In this document: in pieces, positions 1 through 5,100 of the stretch
Position numbering within the stretch: the stretch's first letter is position 1
Layout of the letters: each line of letters starts with the position of its first letter
Notes under the pieces: generated by a model
Seen by the model: the letters and a program-made list of their open reading frames with translations, nothing else
Database searches by the model: none
What the model was told of the DNA's origin: nothing
Program-made: the position numbers and the translations under genes
Source: a virus
Lineage: Duplodnaviria > Heunggongvirae > Uroviricota > Caudoviricetes
Length of the DNA stretch: 39,278 bases
IMG/VR virus record: IMGVR_UViG_2690316285_000009
Strand: one strand, 5' to 3'

Positions 1-50
1 GCGTCACGAGCATCAGTTTTAGCTTCACCGGCGTATAGCGCGGCGATTTT

Positions 51-161: not shown

Positions 162-899
162 TCATTCACTCTCTTTCAAACCAGTTTTAACTGTTTGTGG
201 TTTTGGGTAAGGCTGGACTTTGAATAGCTTTGTGTTAAGGCGTTTTCTGGCTCTCTTGTCCAGAAACCGGATGTAACGAAACTGACGGAATTTATGAACA
301 CTGGCTCTGTCGATATTAGCCCGCAGATGTTCACCTCGCTGTCCTCCTCGTTTGATTGCATTCTTGCAAATCTCGTGATACCACTCGCCATCAAGTTCAT
401 AGAATGTTGTTTCATGACTGCCTACATAATCAAAATTGCTTGCCTGGTACACGACACCAAGACAGCCACAACGCTCATCTGCAAACGACTGAACCCACTG
501 CACCTGCGGATAAAGTTGTCTGATTAGTTTGAGCGCGTAACTGATTGCCCTTGATTCGGAGTTTCTCGGCATACAGTCATGCAGCCATAACCGGTTAAGC
601 TCCATATATTCGCGGTTCTGCGTGCCAGTTACGACGCGTGCACCATTGTTTGGATTAAGGGCATAACCCCATTGCATTACGCCAACCAGCTCCCGTTCTG
701 AAAATATGCCCAGATGAAGGTAGGAATTATTTACGAAACGATGGCTGTAATGTTTATTGACGACGACCAGCCGGGCCAGCCAGCAACTTATTGTCTCAAC
801 CCGTAACTCACGGGAGCCATAACCGACGATATTGTCGTTATAGTGAATAAGTTCAGGCGTGCTGATGATACGGGATGTAACTTGCTTTCTGTTCCCCAC
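162..899 (-). CDS. mom: Mom-like DNA modification protein; start codon uncertain (proposed GTG at 899, the ORF extends upstream to 1094)
   Basis: Terminal position next to com as in phage Mu; 5-prime end overlaps the com 3-prime end; AAGGA sequence 9 nt upstream of an in-frame GTG at 899; size about 245 aa is near the Mu Mom size as I recall it. Confidence 0.7.
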
Positions 900-1053
900 G
901 ACAGGATTTCCTTGTGTATGTGGGGTGCTCTGTGGCGCTCTGAGATGTGATTTGATTGAGGGTTTTACAGCGCGGACATTTAACTTCCAGATAACTGAAG
1001 CTGGCTCGTGCCAGTAGCTTGTTACAATGTCGGCACCGTATGTTTCGATACAT
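853..1053 (-). CDS. com: Com-like zinc-finger translational activator of mom
   Basis: Translation contains [10 protein letters not shown]...VKCPRCK, a C4 zinc-finger pattern matching the Mu Com layout; AGGAGG Shine-Dalgarno (plus coords 1064-1069) about 10 nt upstream of the ATG at 1053; overlaps the mom 5-prime end. Confidence 0.8.
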
Positions 1054-1098
1054 GGCCGCATAACCTCCTGCTTTGTTGTTGATATCTTTATCACTCAA

Positions 1099-1120
1099 TC
1101 GATCGACAAAAACGATCGAT
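1099..1120. promoter_or_regulatory. Two GATC-containing palindromic boxes (TCGATCGA and CGATCGAT) upstream of com; candidate Dam-sensitive regulatory site of the mom operon
   Basis: Sequence caatcgatcgacaaaaacgatcgatt read directly; a third GATC at 1183-1186; lies just upstream of the com RBS. Confidence 0.4.
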
Positions 1121-1309
1121 TTGATTTATTTAATTGATACAACAAATAACACGAAATGTCATTAGCGAAAATTTATGAGTTTGATCACTAATTTTAAACG
1201 GTGCTGTAACGCATAAGTGCTGAATGATTGTACATTTGAATACCGCAAAGCAAACAAATCAACTAATTTATAGAAGTCAATTGGTTAATTGCCAGCGTAA
1301 GAGGCTGCT

Positions 1310-1603
1310 ATGGACAATCATGTAACGACGAGAAATCGAAAAATGATTGAAAATGCGGAAATCTATAATGATTATTTTTCCGATTATTCAGATGCCTGCA
1401 AATACAGTTCGAGTGCGGGAGAGTTCATATGCTTCAACTTTTTTATTAAATCTTATGTTTTTCCTCCACAGCAAGAAGATGGAGGTGTGCCACCTCCTGA
1501 AATCACTTTGCACCGTATAGCCTCCGTCTCAATGATGGAGCAACAGGCTAATGAGCTGTATAGCATTCTGGGAACGATTCTACAAAAGCGTGAATCGGAC
1601 TAA
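1310..1603 (+). CDS. Hypothetical protein (97 aa) in AT-rich cargo DNA, opposite strand to phage genes
   Basis: ORF with AAGAGG Shine-Dalgarno 6 nt upstream of ATG; markedly AT-rich relative to the phage backbone; no recognisable motif. Confidence 0.45.
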   Translation: MDNHVTTRNRKMIENAEIYNDYFSDYSDACKYSSSAGEFICFNFFIKSYVFPPQQEDGGVPPPEITLHRIASVSMMEQQANELYSILGTILQKRESD

Positions 1604-1770
1604 TGATACCGGTTCATTTGCCTGCCCGGATGGGGAAGCAGGATTGACTGCTCCATAAGCAGCTATATTTCTGAATACGAAATACTATCCAGCGATTACA
1701 TATGGCTGGATAGCGGCAAAGATGTTTTCATTAGTGTCAAACCGGCAGAGGACACCACCGGTTTGTATTG

Positions 1771-2025
1771 TTACATCATGGTACTGTCAGTTCCGGGCTG
1801 AGCCGGGTCTGGTTGCTCTGGCTGCGCGTCGGTTTTCGGCTCATTATCAGCATCACTGGCCGCAACTGCTGGCCCAATAAGTTTTGCCAGCACTTCATCA
1901 ACGTAAGTGTCGATTTGTGCCTCAAAATCCTTGCGGACCTGCGCTTTCAGCAACTTATTTACTTCACCGGAATACAGTGCCTGTTTTACCAGGTCTTCAG
2001 TGACGGTGCCTTTAATTTCTGGCAT
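1771..2025 (-). CDS. Hypothetical acidic protein (84 aa) with a low-complexity D/E/P/Q-rich C-terminus
   Basis: Strong AAGGAGG Shine-Dalgarno 7 nt upstream of ATG at 2025; downstream of and co-oriented with the small membrane-protein gene. Confidence 0.55.
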   Translation of the reverse strand: MPEIKGTVTEDLVKQALYSGEVNKLLKAQVRKDFEAQIDTYVDEVLAKLIGPAVAASDADNEPKTDAQPEQPDPAQPGTDSTMM

Positions 2026-2060
2026 GTATATCCTCCTTATGCGGGAATAAAGCCCTGCAA

Positions 2061-2243
2061 TCAGGGCTGGGTCGGGTCTTTTGGGAGCGGAGTTACCTGC
2101 GCTGTTTTACGGAGTTTTTCAGCTGCTGCGTCCTCAATTTTGCGGCGAACATAATTTCTGATGGCCTTATAACCACCACTCACCAGATATAACGCACATA
2201 CTGCCGTGCAGAAATACAATAAAATAAGCTGTAAAAATGTCAT
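2061..2243 (-). CDS. Small membrane protein (about 60 aa, one predicted transmembrane helix followed by a basic/charged tail)
   Basis: GGGAGGG Shine-Dalgarno immediately upstream of internal ATG at 2243 (the ORF track starts at 2255); hydrophobic stretch LQLILLYFCTAVCALYLV. Confidence 0.5.
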   Translation of the reverse strand: MTFLQLILLYFCTAVCALYLVSGGYKAIRNYVRRKIEDAAAEKLRKTAQVTPLPKDPTQP

Positions 2244-2339
2244 TATCCCTCCCAATTATTGACATGGTGTTGACACCGGTAATATCTGTTAGGTAAAAAG
2301 GTGCACTGCATTTTTTGCTTTGGATATAACGATCTTTTT

Positions 2340-2381
2340 GCCGCCGGTTTCTTGTTTTCCCTTACCGGCGGCATTTTTTTA
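2340..2381 (+). terminator. Intrinsic-terminator-like hairpin functional in the plus direction (9-bp GC stem GCCGCCGGT/ACCGGCGGC followed by a 7-T run)
   Basis: Read directly from sequence; on the minus strand the hairpin is followed by an A-run, so it is not a canonical terminator for the esterase gene that ends at 2388. Confidence 0.5.
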
Positions 2382-2387
2382 TCCTGC

Positions 2388-4442
2388 TTACGCGTTATTC
2401 ACTTCCACCACGATACTGTCAATCAGTACCGGGTAAGTCGCATTTTTAGTGATATCGGTCACGCGCAACTTGTCTGCCGTAAACGTGCCGACCGGAGACT
2501 GCGACAGCATGAATGGTGTCCCGTCCTTACCATCAATGACCGGCGTCACCTCAATACTGTTGTTACCGGCAAAACGGAAGCCCAGCGTATGCCATTCGTT
2601 ATTAAATGCGCCGAATGACCCCAGCTTCGTGTTCTGCGCCGTGTTTCCTTTGTGATACATCACGTTAAGGTCTGTGGCATCGCTCTGTACGTAGAACGAT
2701 GCCAGCAGGTTATGACCGGCATTTCCTTCCAGAGTAACCCCTTGCGGCAGGGCAGAAACCGGCCAGTACAGCGCCAGTGCGTACTGATTAGCCGTAAGCG
2801 CGCCATCGAGTTTAAAACGACAACTGACAAGACCACCTTTACCCAGCAGGTCCGCACCATTACCAGCATCATGCTCAAGGTACCAGGGGGCTCTTCCTGT
2901 TTCCTTGGTCAGTTTCATTGCCTTACCCCCGCTGGCTCCGGCATCATCCACGATTTGAGCCTTGCCACCTCCGGCAGCCCAACCCTGTGGTGTCAACCGT
3001 CCTTCAGACTCAGATGCCCGGTAAGCAAATAGCGTACTCATCGTCGTGGTGTCTGCGGGTGGCGTGGACGGTTTTGATGGTGTATCAGGTGACGGCTTCT
3101 CATCCGGTGGTGTCACGGTCTGCCCGCGCATCAGTTCAGCCGTGCGCCCTGCATGGAGCATAATAGCTGAGGCCAGACGGTCTGAAATGACGCCCCTGCG
3201 TGCCCATGAGCTGAAATGGCTGTCACGCTGTGTCGAAACAAAACTGCCCTGGGTTCGGGATGCTGCACCGTAATACCCGACAGCCACAATATCCGGGTCT
3301 TCCGCCGGAGCATTCGTTGGCGTGCTCTGTCCATTCTCATCCGTCAGGAACGGTACAAAGAAAATTTTCTGTGCTTCCTTGCCTTTGTAGCCACCGTATA
3401 CTGCCTCATATTTATCGGTGCCAGCGTTTTTCCAGTAATACGTGGTATCACCGCAAATCCACGGCACCGTGGTGGCATTTCCACTCACGCACTGCGCAGC
3501 AAGCGGAGCCTGGTCAGTTCTGAACTGCTGAACCATGGCCGTGAATAAACTATTATGCTGCTGGCTTCCTGAGGCAAGGTCTGCCTCTCCCTGCATCCAG
3601 ACCACAGCCAGAAGTTTGTTTTTCGGGTTTTTCGCCAGCGCGACTTTGGTGCGGCTTACCAGGTCCTGATACAGAGGTTTACCGGCCCCCCAGCGTGAAG
3701 AATCAGCGGAAGCACCGCTGGCCTCACTGAATGAGCCGTCGGCTCCAGTGGTGAATGCTGACCCGCCACGACAACAGGGCACCAGAAGTATCCCGGCATT
3801 CTGTGGGATATAGGGAAGCAGTTTTTTGGCAATATGCAACCCCTGACCGACAGTCCCGTACTGGCCTTTTGCCAGATCAGCTTTCGGGTGGTTTATCCCG
3901 CTCATATCCTGAACATCATGCAGGCAGTGGTCTGCCGGAATGATGTCGTTGTATGTACACGACGTACCGTTGGGCGTTACCGTACTGCGGCGTGCCAGTT
4001 GCTTAATGCGTGGGTCCGGGCGGTCAAACGAATCCGGTAACGGCAGCCCCTCGCCGTAGGCCATGCCATTTGACTGACCCGCGAGAATGACAACAAAGTA
4101 ATATTCCGGCTCTGAACTGCTGCCATTCGTGCTACCGGAAGGCCCGGCGTTATCCGGTGCATTCCAGTCGGAGGGCGTGAGCGTTCCGGCCACGTCAGAT
4201 GTGATTGGAATGATGCCAGTCACGCCTGAACTGGTGATTTCTGCACTGGGATTACCGGATACCGGCATTACCCATAATGGCTCTTTCGTGCTGAAGCGGA
4301 TCACGCAGTCTGCGAAGGTGATCCCCCCTTTATTACCCGAAGGGCGGAAAGGGCTTTCAATAAATGCCACCGTGCCACCGGCAACCTTGACTGAAAACTC
4401 TCCGGGCATGGCGGAGAGCATTTTCCACTTGGAGTCTGACAT
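2388..4442 (-). CDS. Multi-domain SGNH/SASA-family carbohydrate O-acetylesterase (684 aa): N-terminal domain, esterase core, Pro/Thr-rich linker, C-terminal roughly 200-aa domain of unknown type
   Basis: Motifs in the translation: VVILAGQSNGMAYGEG (GQSN catalytic-serine block), VVWMQGEADLASG (QGE block), RDSHFS (D-x-H block) in the order expected for SGNH/SASA esterases; linker PPDEKPSPDTPSKPSTPPADTTT; no N-terminal signal peptide. Confidence 0.7.
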   Translation of the reverse strand: MSDSKWKMLSAMPGEFSVKVAGGTVAFIESPFRPSGNKGGITFADCVIRFSTKEPLWVMPVSGNPSAEITSSGVTGIIPITSDVAGTLTPSDWNAPDNAGPSGSTNGSSSEPEYYFVVILAGQSNGMAYGEGLPLPDSFDRPDPRIKQLARRSTVTPNGTSCTYNDIIPADHCLHDVQDMSGINHPKADLAKGQYGTVGQGLHIAKKLLPYIPQNAGILLVPCCRGGSAFTTGADGSFSEASGASADSSRWGAGKPLYQDLVSRTKVALAKNPKNKLLAVVWMQGEADLASGSQQHNSLFTAMVQQFRTDQAPLAAQCVSGNATTVPWICGDTTYYWKNAGTDKYEAVYGGYKGKEAQKIFFVPFLTDENGQSTPTNAPAEDPDIVAVGYYGAASRTQGSFVSTQRDSHFSSWARRGVISDRLASAIMLHAGRTAELMRGQTVTPPDEKPSPDTPSKPSTPPADTTTMSTLFAYRASESEGRLTPQGWAAGGGKAQIVDDAGASGGKAMKLTKETGRAPWYLEHDAGNGADLLGKGGLVSCRFKLDGALTANQYALALYWPVSALPQGVTLEGNAGHNLLASFYVQSDATDLNVMYHKGNTAQNTKLGSFGAFNNEWHTLGFRFAGNNSIEVTPVIDGKDGTPFMLSQSPVGTFTADKLRVTDITKNATYPVLIDSIVVEVNNA

Positions 4443-4513
4443 CGTCTTTTCTGCCTGTTTCTGAATTAAACAGAGTCAGAATAGCGACCGCTGAAAAATA
4501 TGTGTTTTGCGGA

Positions 4514-4547
4514 AATTCAAAAAAGCGTCACGGTACTTTTGGTGACG
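4514..4547 (-). terminator. Rho-independent terminator at the 3-prime end of gin
   Basis: Stem CGTCAC/GTGACG with 10-nt loop followed, on the minus strand, by a 6-T run; the gin stop codon lies inside the stem. Confidence 0.6.
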
Positions 4548-5100
4548 GAGCTGGTGAGGCAGGAAAATAACGATAAAGGGTGGAAAGGCCAATATCAAAT
4601 ATCAGTGCGATTTGTTTACGGGACTCGCCATTAGCCAGCAAACGGGCGATTTGCTCCCGCTCTTTCTCTGTCAGTTTCTGAGGTCTGCCGCCATGACGCC
4701 CCTGAGCACGGGCAGCAGCAAGACCCGCGCGTGTACGTTCAATAATGAGTTCCCGCTCCATTTCCGCCAGCGCGCCCATTATATGGAAAAAGAAACGTCC
4801 CATGGGAGTGGATGTATCAATATTGTCCGTAATGCTGCGGAAGTTAACGCCGCGTTGCCGGAGTTCTTCTGTTAAAAGGACAAGGTGCTGCATACTGCGT
4901 CCAAGGCGATCCAGTTTCCAGACCAGCAGGGTATCCCCTGGCCGGAGTCGCTTTAATGCGCGTTTAAGTCCGGGACGCTCCCTTGTCTTACCGCTTATTC
5001 TGTCTTCGAAAAACAGCTCACATCCTGCACATTCCAGCGCATTTCTTTGTAGCGCCGTATTCTGGTCATTTGTTGACACCCTGATATACCCAATCAGCAT
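4528..5100 (-). CDS. gin: Gin-type serine DNA invertase
   Basis: N-terminus MLIGYIRVSTNDQ with the catalytic serine context typical of Hin/Gin/Cin resolvase-invertases; C-terminal helix-turn-helix; sits next to an invertible segment bounded by gix-like sites. Confidence 0.9.
   Translation of the reverse strand: MLIGYIRVSTNDQNTALQRNALECAGCELFFEDRISGKTRERPGLKRALKRLRPGDTLLVWKLDRLGRSMQHLVLLTEELRQRGVNFRSITDNIDTSTPMGRFFFHIMGALAEMERELIIERTRAGLAAARAQGRHGGRPQKLTEKEREQIARLLANGESRKQIALIFDIGLSTLYRYFPASPAPSPKVP

Follow-up and report, generated by a model that had tools for sequence, protein, structure and literature searches.

In phage Mu, 94 bp separate the gin stop from the com start, whereas in the prophage studied here the same interval measures about 3.4 kb. 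What is this DNA, and does it belong to a phage lineage or to a single strain? The window, that is, the whole stretch of 39,278 nucleotides that we analysed, is a 39-kb Mu-like prophage of E. coli and is collinear with Sp18 of O157:H7 Sakai over window positions 34-39244 (whole-prophage blastn). Its gene order is of the Mu type, opening with the repressor and transposase genes and passing through the tail genes to gin and com-mom, which places it among the Mu-like (Sp18-type) transposable prophages. Identical prophages occupy different chromosomal sites, with homology beginning at window position 23-34. The features of the island and its borders are as follows.

162-899, minus strand: mom (Pfam Mom).
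854..1054, minus strand: com, the left border of the island, overlapping mom (Pfam Zn_ribbon_Com; RefSeq annotation of an identical prophage).
1097..1121, no strand: GATC-containing palindrome AATCGATCG-N7-CGATCGATT, the counterpart of the Dam/OxyR site region that precedes mom in Mu (alignment with Mu and Sp18-type phage).
1163..1741, no strand: AT-rich variable slot, GC about 38% (whole-prophage blastn against Sp18).
1310..1603, plus strand: convergent orphan ORF of 97 aa (ORF list); 86 aa in RefSeq, from about 1343.
1647..1765, no strand: hairpin cluster between the 97-aa ORF and the DUF826 gene (hairpins 1647-1663, 1684-1714 and 1738-1765).
1771..2025, minus strand: acidic DUF826 protein of 84 aa (Pfam PF05696, E 6e-16; phrog_311).
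2061..2243 (ORF to 2255), minus strand: DUF1378 small membrane protein, 60 aa from an ATG at about 2243 or 64 aa from TTG 2255 (Pfam PF07125, E 2e-30).
2270..2382, plus strand: candidate antisense sRNA unit (TTGACA 2270-2275, 18-nt spacer, TAAAAA 2294-2299, variable body, GC-rich hairpin 2339-2373, T7 run 2375-2381).
2388..4442, minus strand: predicted NanS-p-type sialate O-acetylesterase, 684 aa (matches to PDB 3PT5 and 6YP6; Pfam SASA and DUF6645).
2394-3038, minus strand: C-terminal lectin-like domain of the esterase, aa 469-683 (Pfam DUF6645, E 8e-68; 6YP6 match).
3159-4115, minus strand: SGNH/SASA catalytic domain of the esterase, aa 110-428 (Pfam SASA; 3PT5 match).
4188-4442, minus strand: lineage-specific all-beta N-terminal domain of the esterase, aa 1 to about 85 (AF2 model, pLDDT 76).
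4514..4547, minus strand: weak hairpin plus T6 over the gin stop codon (6-bp stem, 10-nt loop, six T).
4528..5100, minus strand: gin, a serine DNA invertase, the right border of the island (Pfam Resolvase and HTH_7).

The ORF list and the Pfam matches place the four ORFs of the island, and gin, com and mom around them, where the original prediction had put them. Its view that the island is extra DNA relative to Mu holds as well, and extends to the Mu prophage of E. coli W, in which gin and com are adjacent. All elements of the Mu junction (gin, com, mom and the GATC operator) are present in the window with their order kept; however, the GATC region of Mu begins within the 3' end of gin, whereas in the window an extra 3.4 kb parts the gin stop from the palindrome. 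Mu homology resumes at this palindrome, so that, measured against Mu, the insertion has its left edge here. The palindrome pattern occurs once in the window (0 matches in 100 shuffles), and the com start is only about 43 nt away, compared with about 85 nt in Mu. The predicted mixed composition with an AT-rich left part was also confirmed, with GC at 34-37% over positions 1051-1500 versus 51-59% over 2400-4350. No direct or inverted repeats were found flanking the island.

The catalytic part of the esterase (aa 110-428) matches NanS, PDB 3PT5 (E 1e-116), with the GQSN and SH blocks kept in the alignment, and the C-terminal domain matches that of NanS-p, PDB 6YP6 (E 7e-98); the linker of the protein is rich in Ser and Gly. 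The aromatics Y510, Y515, Y540 and F611, the proposed sugar site of phi24B NanS-p (PMC10462455), are all identical in the aligned window esterase (4/4). From this homology, we infer an SGNH/SASA-family sialate O-acetylesterase; a point against activity is that block IV reads RDSH, compared with the usual RSSH or RASH (PMC10462455). The chromosomal NanS (YjhS) of E. coli has a homologous catalytic domain with the same two blocks, but NanS belongs to the nan regulon, works in the periplasm and consists of one domain, whereas the window esterase is phage-borne, adds N- and C-terminal domains and, read by eye, has no obvious N-terminal hydrophobic signal sequence.

Together, the esterase, DUF1378 and DUF826 genes are one conserved nanS-p module, known from Stx lambdoid phages. 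In the Stx phage POCJ13 the genes run stxA-stxB-esterase-DUF1378-DUF826-holin, an order and orientation matched by the three genes of the window, and the products at equivalent positions are 51% identical for DUF1378 and 34% for DUF826 (16 D/E versus 8 K/R in the window protein). The carrier and the site differ: the known nanS-p copies sit in lambdoid phages, in the late region between Q/stx and holin S, whereas the copy in the window sits in a transposable Mu-like myovirus between gin and com-mom. Unlike in the lambdoid copies, no STnc100/PasD-type element was found upstream of the window module. These results dispose of the idea that the four island genes are unrelated to one another, because three of them form the module, while leaving intact the idea that their functions are accessory rather than core Mu functions. 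That they are unrelated to morphogenesis or lysis has become doubtful, since the lambdoid module lies in the late operon beside the lysis genes and the N-terminal domain of NanS-p is a reported capsid decoration (bioRxiv 10.64898/2026.04.10.717836).

The spacer between the esterase and DUF1378 genes holds the candidate antisense sRNA unit, with a conserved promoter-like site, whose -10-like hexamer, TAAAAA, lacks the usual final T, and a T-run that stops just short of the esterase stop codon. Its hairpin (2339-2373) folds at -20 kcal/mol (z = -5.2). Across 20 distinct sequences, 87.6% of the stem cells pair, with compensatory changes at two stem positions, compared with 18-63% for slid controls. 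Conservation of the unit extends to the Sp18 type and to a range of lambdoid contexts; in the lambdoid module, too, the esterase stop is followed by an antisense hairpin and a T-run. This position is that reported for PasA/PasC in lambdoid prophages: PasA lies ~2170 bp from PasD2 with the esterase gene in between, and the distance from STnc100 to the hairpin in POCJ13 agrees with that value. The unit is small, adjoins a prophage esterase gene and carries a 3' intrinsic terminator (hairpin plus T-run), as PasA/PasC-type sRNAs do. With the Hfq-dependent prophage sRNAs PasA/PasC of EPEC E2348/69 and the EHEC sRNA Esr41, it shares a 3' GC hairpin with poly-U, a length of ~80 nt and the pairing of a divergent 5' half with a conserved 3' end; to PasA/PasC it is likened by description and not by sequence. 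The Rfam covariance model of Esr41 gave a nonsignificant score (E 0.68, 22 bits versus a threshold of 102). The unit probably belongs to the PasA/PasC prophage sRNAs or is an analogue of them, and it may be expressed as an sRNA.

Comparison of its parts with two groups of relatives characterizes the esterase, at the sequence level, as a chimera in which the body is of lambdoid type and the first ~100 residues are specific to the Mu lineage and stand in place of DUF1737. Against lambdoid DUF1737-type NanS-p (such as 933W L0105 and phi24B gp84/vb_24B_21; PDB 6YP6), the catalytic region is 84-92% identical, the linker up to 100% and the C-terminal region 81-93%; against the Sp18-type positional orthologue, the corresponding values are 69%, 34% and 74%. 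The relationship is reversed over the N-terminal 100 aa, which are about 16% identical to the DUF1737 forms (unrelated) and 59% identical to the Sp18-type orthologue. DUF1737 (PF08410) had no Pfam match in the window esterase, and the ~85-aa domain found there instead matched no Pfam or PHROG family and is modeled as all-beta (AF2, pLDDT 76), compared with alpha plus beta for DUF1737. This domain was found only in Mu-like prophages. Within the lineage it is far more conserved than the enzyme body and is seen with three different bodies, a third catalytic allele being fused to the Sp18-type N terminus. In a more distant Mu-like prophage, gin is followed by two small ORFs and these by an esterase with a 30%-identical N terminus. 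The enzyme body probably swaps by recombination with lambdoid nanS-p alleles, while the first ~100 residues would stay with the Mu lineage, replacing DUF1737, the NanS-p capsid anchor in phage phi24B.

We then compared the locus across the Sp18 lineage. The layout of Sp18 from ECs_4992 to ECs_4998 is gin-esterase-DUF1378-DUF826-slot-com-mom, identical to that of the window. In all relatives examined, the esterase module occupies this place, following gin, and the order esterase-DUF1378-DUF826-slot-com recurs in every locus reaching that far (34 IMG/VR loci and further assemblies); as exceptions, gin is missing from a few relatives, and a C5 methylase gene takes the place of mom in a few. The window allele is present in 25 genomes and the Sp18 allele in 168. 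The two prophages are collinear throughout and share the N-terminal domain family (59-61% identical); however, the island is only 70-78% identical in DNA, and Sp18 carries another allele of the esterase body (catalytic domain 69%). This divergence resembles that of the tail genes (76-79%). Moreover, gin adjoins this com-mom type in none of 5426 genomes; this com-mom type is present in 226 genomes. The presence of the module in every relative examined, together with 0/226 genomes with gin beside com, indicates that it is lineage backbone and not strain cargo. The notion of cargo outside the backbone therefore largely fails within the Sp18 lineage, although it stands for Mu-like phages overall. 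A recent, strain-specific horizontal insertion into a Mu-like backbone could account for the absence of the island from Mu and the E. coli W Mu prophage, for its mixed GC and for an enzyme body nearly identical to lambdoid alleles. Such an insertion is, however, already contradicted by the occurrence of the module at the same place in all examined lineage members, where two alleles share about 70% identity, and in the more distant Mu-like prophage, as well as by the lack of flanking repeats, and we consider it extremely improbable.

The slot next to com (1163..1741) is the only part of the island without homology to Sp18. Clustering of 22 loci gave at least four versions among relatives (462, 620, 720 and 853-933 bp), whose orphan small ORFs differ from version to version; the Sp18-type slot carries ECs_4996 or a 64-aa zinc-ribbon ORF. 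In the window, it carries the 97-aa ORF, which had no Pfam, PHROG or PADLOC match and has homologues only in E. coli and Shigella, located in this slot in 4/4 contexts examined. With a dN/dS of 0.40 against a 79%-identical variant, it is probably a real gene. The adjoining hairpin cluster (1647..1765) likely contains transcript ends for both directions: its minus-strand fold reaches -41.7 kcal/mol (z = -4.0), and the terminator scan reports 1648-1662 on the plus strand. Hairpin 1738-1765 forms the right edge of the slot and is kept in Sp18 (alignment). Hypervariability, AT richness and a wealth of orphan small ORFs are typical of hotspots of antiphage defense or counterdefense, and the slot adjoins the antirestriction gene mom. 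We nevertheless regard a defense role of the slot or the island as improbable: no Pfam, PHROG or PADLOC function was found for the slot ORFs, and the nanS-p module clearly accounts for the three large conserved genes.

Taken together, these results favor, with a probability of roughly 0.72, the reading that the island resides in the Sp18 lineage as an accessory module made up of a short hypervariable slot and a nanS-p module transplanted from lambdoid phages. The esterase would, as NanS and NanS-p do, strip the O-acetyl groups of Neu5,9Ac2, whether carried by mucin glycans or present as free sialic acid, with its C-terminal jelly-roll domain acting as a carbohydrate-binding module, and E. coli could then use the Neu5Ac released from its O-acetyl groups. 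The esterase/DUF1378 spacer would hold a conserved antisense transcription unit, and the 0.6-kb AT-rich slot beside the com-mom control region would be a place where orphan small genes are swapped, the 97-aa ORF being its occupant here. Because the esterase has no obvious signal sequence (by eye), it would reach its substrate via phage-induced lysis of some lysogens; release by lysis is a proposal already made for lambdoid NanS-p. We infer the timing of expression in the same way, lambdoid nanS-p being up by 1 to 2.4 logs upon induction (PMC10462455).

The original prediction pointed to lysogenic-conversion or accessory cargo that a terminator insulates from gin. On this reading, the island would be transcribed from a promoter of its own while the prophage is repressed, and every lysogen cell would make the esterase. 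The location near the prophage end, beside the nonessential com-mom, is in keeping with this, as are the hairpin and T6 after gin and the low basal expression of lambdoid nanS-p copies in uninduced STEC (PMC10462455). The hairpin at 4514-4547, however, is a weak candidate for an insulating terminator: its centroid folds at -3.9 kcal/mol, the MFE of the 56-nt stretch is -6.9, 62 of 200 shuffles fold equally well or better (z = -0.5), the Sp18-type allele lacks it, and it is absent from the output of the terminator scan. The 85-bp gin-esterase spacer yielded no convincing sigma-70 promoter. In addition, the homologous lambdoid genes are late genes, and an enzyme without an obvious signal sequence (by eye) would stay in the cytoplasm of intact lysogens and miss mucin-bound substrate. 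Lysogenic conversion of this kind thus seems unlikely to us. A slightly better, though still tentative, candidate is that the esterase is a virion component, with the N-terminal beta domain anchoring it to the Mu-like capsid or tail, such that the gene would be structural or auxiliary and the particle would carry a mucin-glycan esterase. DUF1737 of phi24B gp84 is a capsid-decoration domain from which the enzyme body is cleaved off (preprint, bioRxiv 10.64898/2026.04.10.717836), and it is exactly DUF1737 that is replaced in the window esterase, the body remaining interchangeable with lambdoid alleles. The persistence of the N-terminal domain across three bodies, in Mu-like prophages only, points the same way, and the esterase gene ends the tail-gene block in the same direction. 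Conversely, DUF1737-type esterases also occur in P2-like myoviruses, so that the N-terminal type does not simply track the capsid type, and the domain could instead be a carbohydrate-binding or oligomerization module.

The nanS-p/DUF1378/DUF826 module of Shiga toxin-type phages was already known; new here are the N-terminal domain and the fixation of the module in a lineage of Mu-like E. coli prophages. A broader reading, which we put forward as speculative, is that the unrelated lambdoid, P2-like and Mu-like types of temperate phage share an interchangeable mucus-enzyme body, which each lineage fastens to its virion with an N-terminal adaptor of its own: DUF1737 for lambdoid and P2-like phages, the ~85-aa beta domain for Mu-like ones. 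The module would bring along its own PasA/PasC-like Hfq-type sRNA. If this is true, the Mu-like N-terminal domain would be a previously unrecognized virion-anchoring (decoration) domain, and the island would be a portable enzyme-plus-regulator cassette rather than passive cargo.

One complete Mu-like prophage fills the window in reverse orientation, with the phage right end at the left end of the window. In a whole-prophage comparison, positions 34 to ~39244 of the window were collinear with Sp18, a Mu-like prophage of E. coli O157:H7 Sakai. Identical copies are present in other E. coli genomes at differing chromosomal sites, with homology beginning at 23 to 34, which fits transposition-type insertion. 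The host flank at positions 1 to 37 matches the IS110-family element ISEc20 at 97 to 100% over 34 to 37 nt; an IS element, or a site next to one, may therefore be where this prophage copy inserted. The gin-to-mom region carries the following features.

162-899, minus strand: mom (ORF calls, Pfam, RefSeq annotation of an identical prophage)
854-1054, minus strand: com (ORF calls, Pfam, RefSeq annotation of an identical prophage)
1097-1121, no strand: GATC palindrome, homologous to the Mu Dam/OxyR operator
1310-1603, plus strand: 97-aa ORF (ORF call)
1771-2025, minus strand: 84-aa acidic protein (Pfam DUF826)
2061-2243 or 2061-2255, minus strand: membrane protein of 60 or 64 aa (Pfam DUF1378)
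2388-4442, minus strand: 684-aa esterase (Pfam SASA and DUF6645)
4528-5100, minus strand: gin (ORF calls, Pfam)

In phage Mu, 94 bp separate the gin stop from the com start, a gap shared by the prophage Mu of E. coli W; the original prediction of extra DNA between gin and com-mom was therefore confirmed. So was its mixed composition, since windowed GC content was 34 to 37% over 1051-1500 versus 51 to 59% within the esterase gene. Alignment with Mu placed the insertion point after the gin stop and ahead of the GATC operator, and no flanking direct or inverted repeats that would form an insertion signature were found around the island. The distance from the GATC palindrome, which is unique in the window, to the com start downstream of it is ~43 nt, versus ~85 nt in Mu, so the geometry of the mom promoter and C activator must differ from that of Mu.

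We then identified the genes of the island, which had been described as four genes unrelated to transposition, morphogenesis or lysis. Esterase residues 110-428 match chromosomal NanS/YjhS (PDB 3PT5, E value = 1e-116), and for residues 469-683 the match is the C-terminal, lectin-like domain of phage NanS-p (PDB 6YP6, E value = 7e-98). The serine block (GQSN) and the histidine block are both retained; block IV reads RDSH, not RSSH or RASH. In the Shiga toxin (Stx) phage POCJ13 the order is Q, stxA, stxB, esterase, DUF1378, DUF826, holin, lysozyme, and DUF826 and DUF1378 genes have likewise been described between nanS-p and S (PMC10462455). The DUF1378 protein of the window is 51% identical to its POCJ13 counterpart and the DUF826 protein 34%. 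Because order and orientation are the same as in Stx phages, the three co-directional genes of the island constitute the lambdoid nanS-p module rather than an unrelated set, and the island is largely explained by this known module.

Sequence comparison further indicates that the island is an insertion relative to Mu but backbone within its own lineage. Sp18, whose sequence dates from 2001, is arranged in the same way: ECs_4992 (gin), ECs_4993 (esterase), ECs_4994 (DUF1378), ECs_4995 (DUF826), ECs_4996 (other strand), ECs_4997 (com) and ECs_4998 (mom). The com-mom type of the window was present in 226 of 5,426 complete E. coli genomes at ~94% identity or more, with many non-O157 and commensal strains among the carriers. 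A query joining com-mom directly to gin, informative for close relatives only (expected coverage, ~90%), found gin adjacent to this com-mom type in none of the 5,426 genomes. The window allele of the island occurred in 25 genomes and the Sp18 allele in 168. The same gene order recurred in 34 IMG/VR loci and several assemblies, a few without gin and a few with a C5 methylase for mom. Identity between the window and Sp18 varied by region as follows.

com-mom: 94.7%
1163-1741: no homology
DUF826/DUF1378: 78.5%
Esterase and gin: 70%
Tail genes: 76-79%
Head and early genes: 88-95%

These regional identities indicate that the island matches the tail block in age and divergence. Thus, the view of the region as a cargo island stands insofar as the DNA is inserted relative to Mu, but the same gene set belongs to the backbone throughout the Sp18 lineage; DNA absent from the type phage need not be cargo.

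Several relatives depart from this layout. Three loci (GCA_002536225, GCA_012250445 and GCA_017769005) have lost gin, placing the esterase directly after the tail-fibre assembly gene, with the rest of the island unchanged. Mu_JNE082796, a Mu-like phage inside the Stx2c phage LC727881, keeps com and carries a 350-aa C-5 cytosine DNA methyltransferase in place of mom (L003 1748-2800; Pfam DNA_methylase, E value = 2e-42). The same replacement is found in L039 and L045; some Sp18-type prophages have exchanged one DNA-modification gene for another under an unchanged com control region. A distant Mu-like prophage (GCA_037428405.1; L014 7426-7910) has two small ORFs of 58 and 87 aa between gin and the esterase; the larger gave a faint Xre-type HTH match, and the contig ends inside the esterase.

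The sole cargo-like part of the island is an AT-rich slot of 0.6 kb between the hairpin that follows DUF826 and the com control region. It exists in at least four versions (462, 620, 720 and 853 to 933 bp; GC, 38 to 41%), with different orphan ORFs in each, and no slot ORF had a Pfam or PADLOC match. A defence function was rejected, as PADLOC returned nothing for any island or slot protein. Homologues of the 97-aa ORF are confined to E. coli and Shigella and lay in the slot in all four contexts examined. Its dN/dS of 0.40 against a 79%-identical variant suggests that it is probably a real gene.

Next, we looked into the architecture of the esterase. Its homologues fall into two forms, a lambdoid type of ~647 to 650 aa with DUF1737, SASA and DUF6645 and a Mu type of ~680 to 691 aa without DUF1737. 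The window esterase compares with lambdoid forms and with its Sp18-type positional orthologue as follows.

First 100 aa: ~16% (unrelated) versus lambdoid forms; 59% versus the Sp18-type orthologue
Catalytic domain: 84-92% versus lambdoid forms; 69% versus the Sp18-type orthologue
Linker: up to 100% versus lambdoid forms; 34% versus the Sp18-type orthologue
C-terminal domain: 81-93% versus lambdoid forms; 74% versus the Sp18-type orthologue

Proteins that diverge by more than 10% in the body share a nearly invariant Mu-type N terminus, and the Sp18-type N terminus was found fused to at least two differing catalytic alleles. These results indicate free recombination of the body with lambdoid alleles, whereas the ~100 residues at the N terminus remain tied to the Mu lineage. 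The Mu-type N-terminal domain matched neither a Pfam nor a PHROG family, and a word-indexed homologue search returned fragments only. Searched exhaustively with HMMER, 1.8 billion representatives yielded one credible distant relative (30% identical), which sits in another Mu-like prophage, also downstream of gin. GTDB species representatives yielded no homologues, and IMG/VR held the domain only as the two known alleles. The first AF2 model was unusable (pLDDT, 52); the hits of the second (pLDDT, 76) were limited to generic cupin-like ones and weak ones among unnamed phage proteins.

For the NanS-p of phi24B (gp84), a 2026 preprint reports that the DUF1737 domain is a capsid decoration bound to the central hexons and that the body of the enzyme is removed by cleavage (bioRxiv 10.64898/2026.04.10.717836). 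As DUF1737 is precisely the domain replaced in the Mu-like lineage, it is a reasonable hypothesis that the Mu-type domain serves as a lineage-specific virion anchor. A simple rule of this kind is, however, countered by the DUF1737-type esterases that also lie beside the lysis genes of P2-like myoviruses. In P2-like vB_EcoM-569R5 (L008 1-1251) and a P88-like phage (L009 1-1464), a DUF1737-type nanS-p homologue directly follows the lysis cassette, and both database records stop inside it. The Mu-like esterases thus offer a natural domain swap, with the N terminus exchanged cleanly and the body recombining with lambdoid alleles, that bears on the claim that the NanS-p N terminus is a capsid anchor.

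Within the 144 nt that separate the esterase stop from the DUF1378 start lies an antisense unit with three elements.

2270-2275 (TTGACA) and 2294-2299 (TAAAAA), plus strand: promoter-like site with an 18-nt spacer (sequence reading)
2339-2373, plus strand: 10-bp GC hairpin preceded by a variable body (-20 kcal/mol, z = -5.2)
Directly before the esterase stop codon, plus strand: T7 run (sequence reading)

On the minus strand the hairpin is flanked by A runs, so termination is possible for plus-strand transcripts only. The arrangement is common to Sp18, Mu_JNE082796 and diverse lambdoid contexts. Across 20 distinct sequences, stem pairing held in 87.6% of cells, versus 18 to 63% in slid controls, and two stem positions had compensatory changes (G-C to C-G and G-C to A-U). 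In lambdoid prophages, the Hfq-dependent sRNAs PasA/PasC immediately adjoin the esterase gene, with PasD/STnc100 on its other side, ~2170 bp away; the STnc100-to-hairpin distance in POCJ13 agrees with this spacing. In Pas sRNAs the 3' terminator is conserved and the 5' half diverges, and the antisense unit resembles them in these features and in position, a likeness of layout. It is a probable prophage sRNA unit. STnc100 itself (195 bits) lies between stxB and nanS-p in POCJ13 (L004 6171-6384), whereas an Rfam scan found no STnc100-like element upstream of the esterase in the Mu-like island. Esr41 was rejected: this sole Rfam hit for the unit, at 2300-2382, was not significant (E value = 0.68), and Esr41 maps to SpLE1/OI-43, not beside nanS-p. 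At the putative -35, the TTGACA-containing motif is tandemly duplicated in the window (2259-2275, TTGACAtggtgTTGACA), a duplication absent from Sp18-type and POCJ13-type spacers.

The insulating terminator predicted at 4514-4547 exists as a hairpin (6-bp stem, 10-nt loop), but its insulating role is unreliable, since it is no stabler than shuffled sequence (z = -0.5) and is absent both from the terminator-scan output and from the Sp18 allele. Stronger hairpins lie between the convergent 97-aa ORF and DUF826 (1647-1765, z = -4.0). A promoter scan found no esterase promoter in the gin-esterase spacer, and manual candidates were poor. The single match to a Mu C-protein-type site (TTAT-N6-ATAA; 2037-2050) was discarded, as it overlaps the DUF826 ribosome-binding site and 25 of 100 shuffles held at least one match. 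The esterase gene points the same way as the tail genes, gin and com-mom, which makes read-through of late or gin transcripts the simplest source of its transcription.

The NanS/NanS-p family is associated with Neu5,9Ac2 deacetylation, a growth benefit and late expression (PMC10462455). By analogy, we infer that the esterase would deacetylate sialic acids of gut mucus. Reading the sequence by eye revealed no obvious N-terminal hydrophobic signal sequence, so the enzyme would probably be released on lysis of induced cells or carried on virions.

To our knowledge, NanS-p esterases have been discussed almost solely in lambdoid phages, alongside Shiga toxin genes, and full-text searches found no literature linking nanS-p with Mu-like prophages or ECs4993. 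Three features are new: the nanS-p module is hosted by a transposable, Mu-like phage, an undescribed domain stands in for DUF1737, and a probable sRNA unit has been transferred together with the module. A widespread lineage of E. coli Mu-like prophages carries the module as a fixed component, giving it a wider vehicle than lambdoid phages. Mu-like prophages insert almost anywhere, and this gives genes for mucus-sugar utilisation, and probably a prophage sRNA, wider routes of spread.
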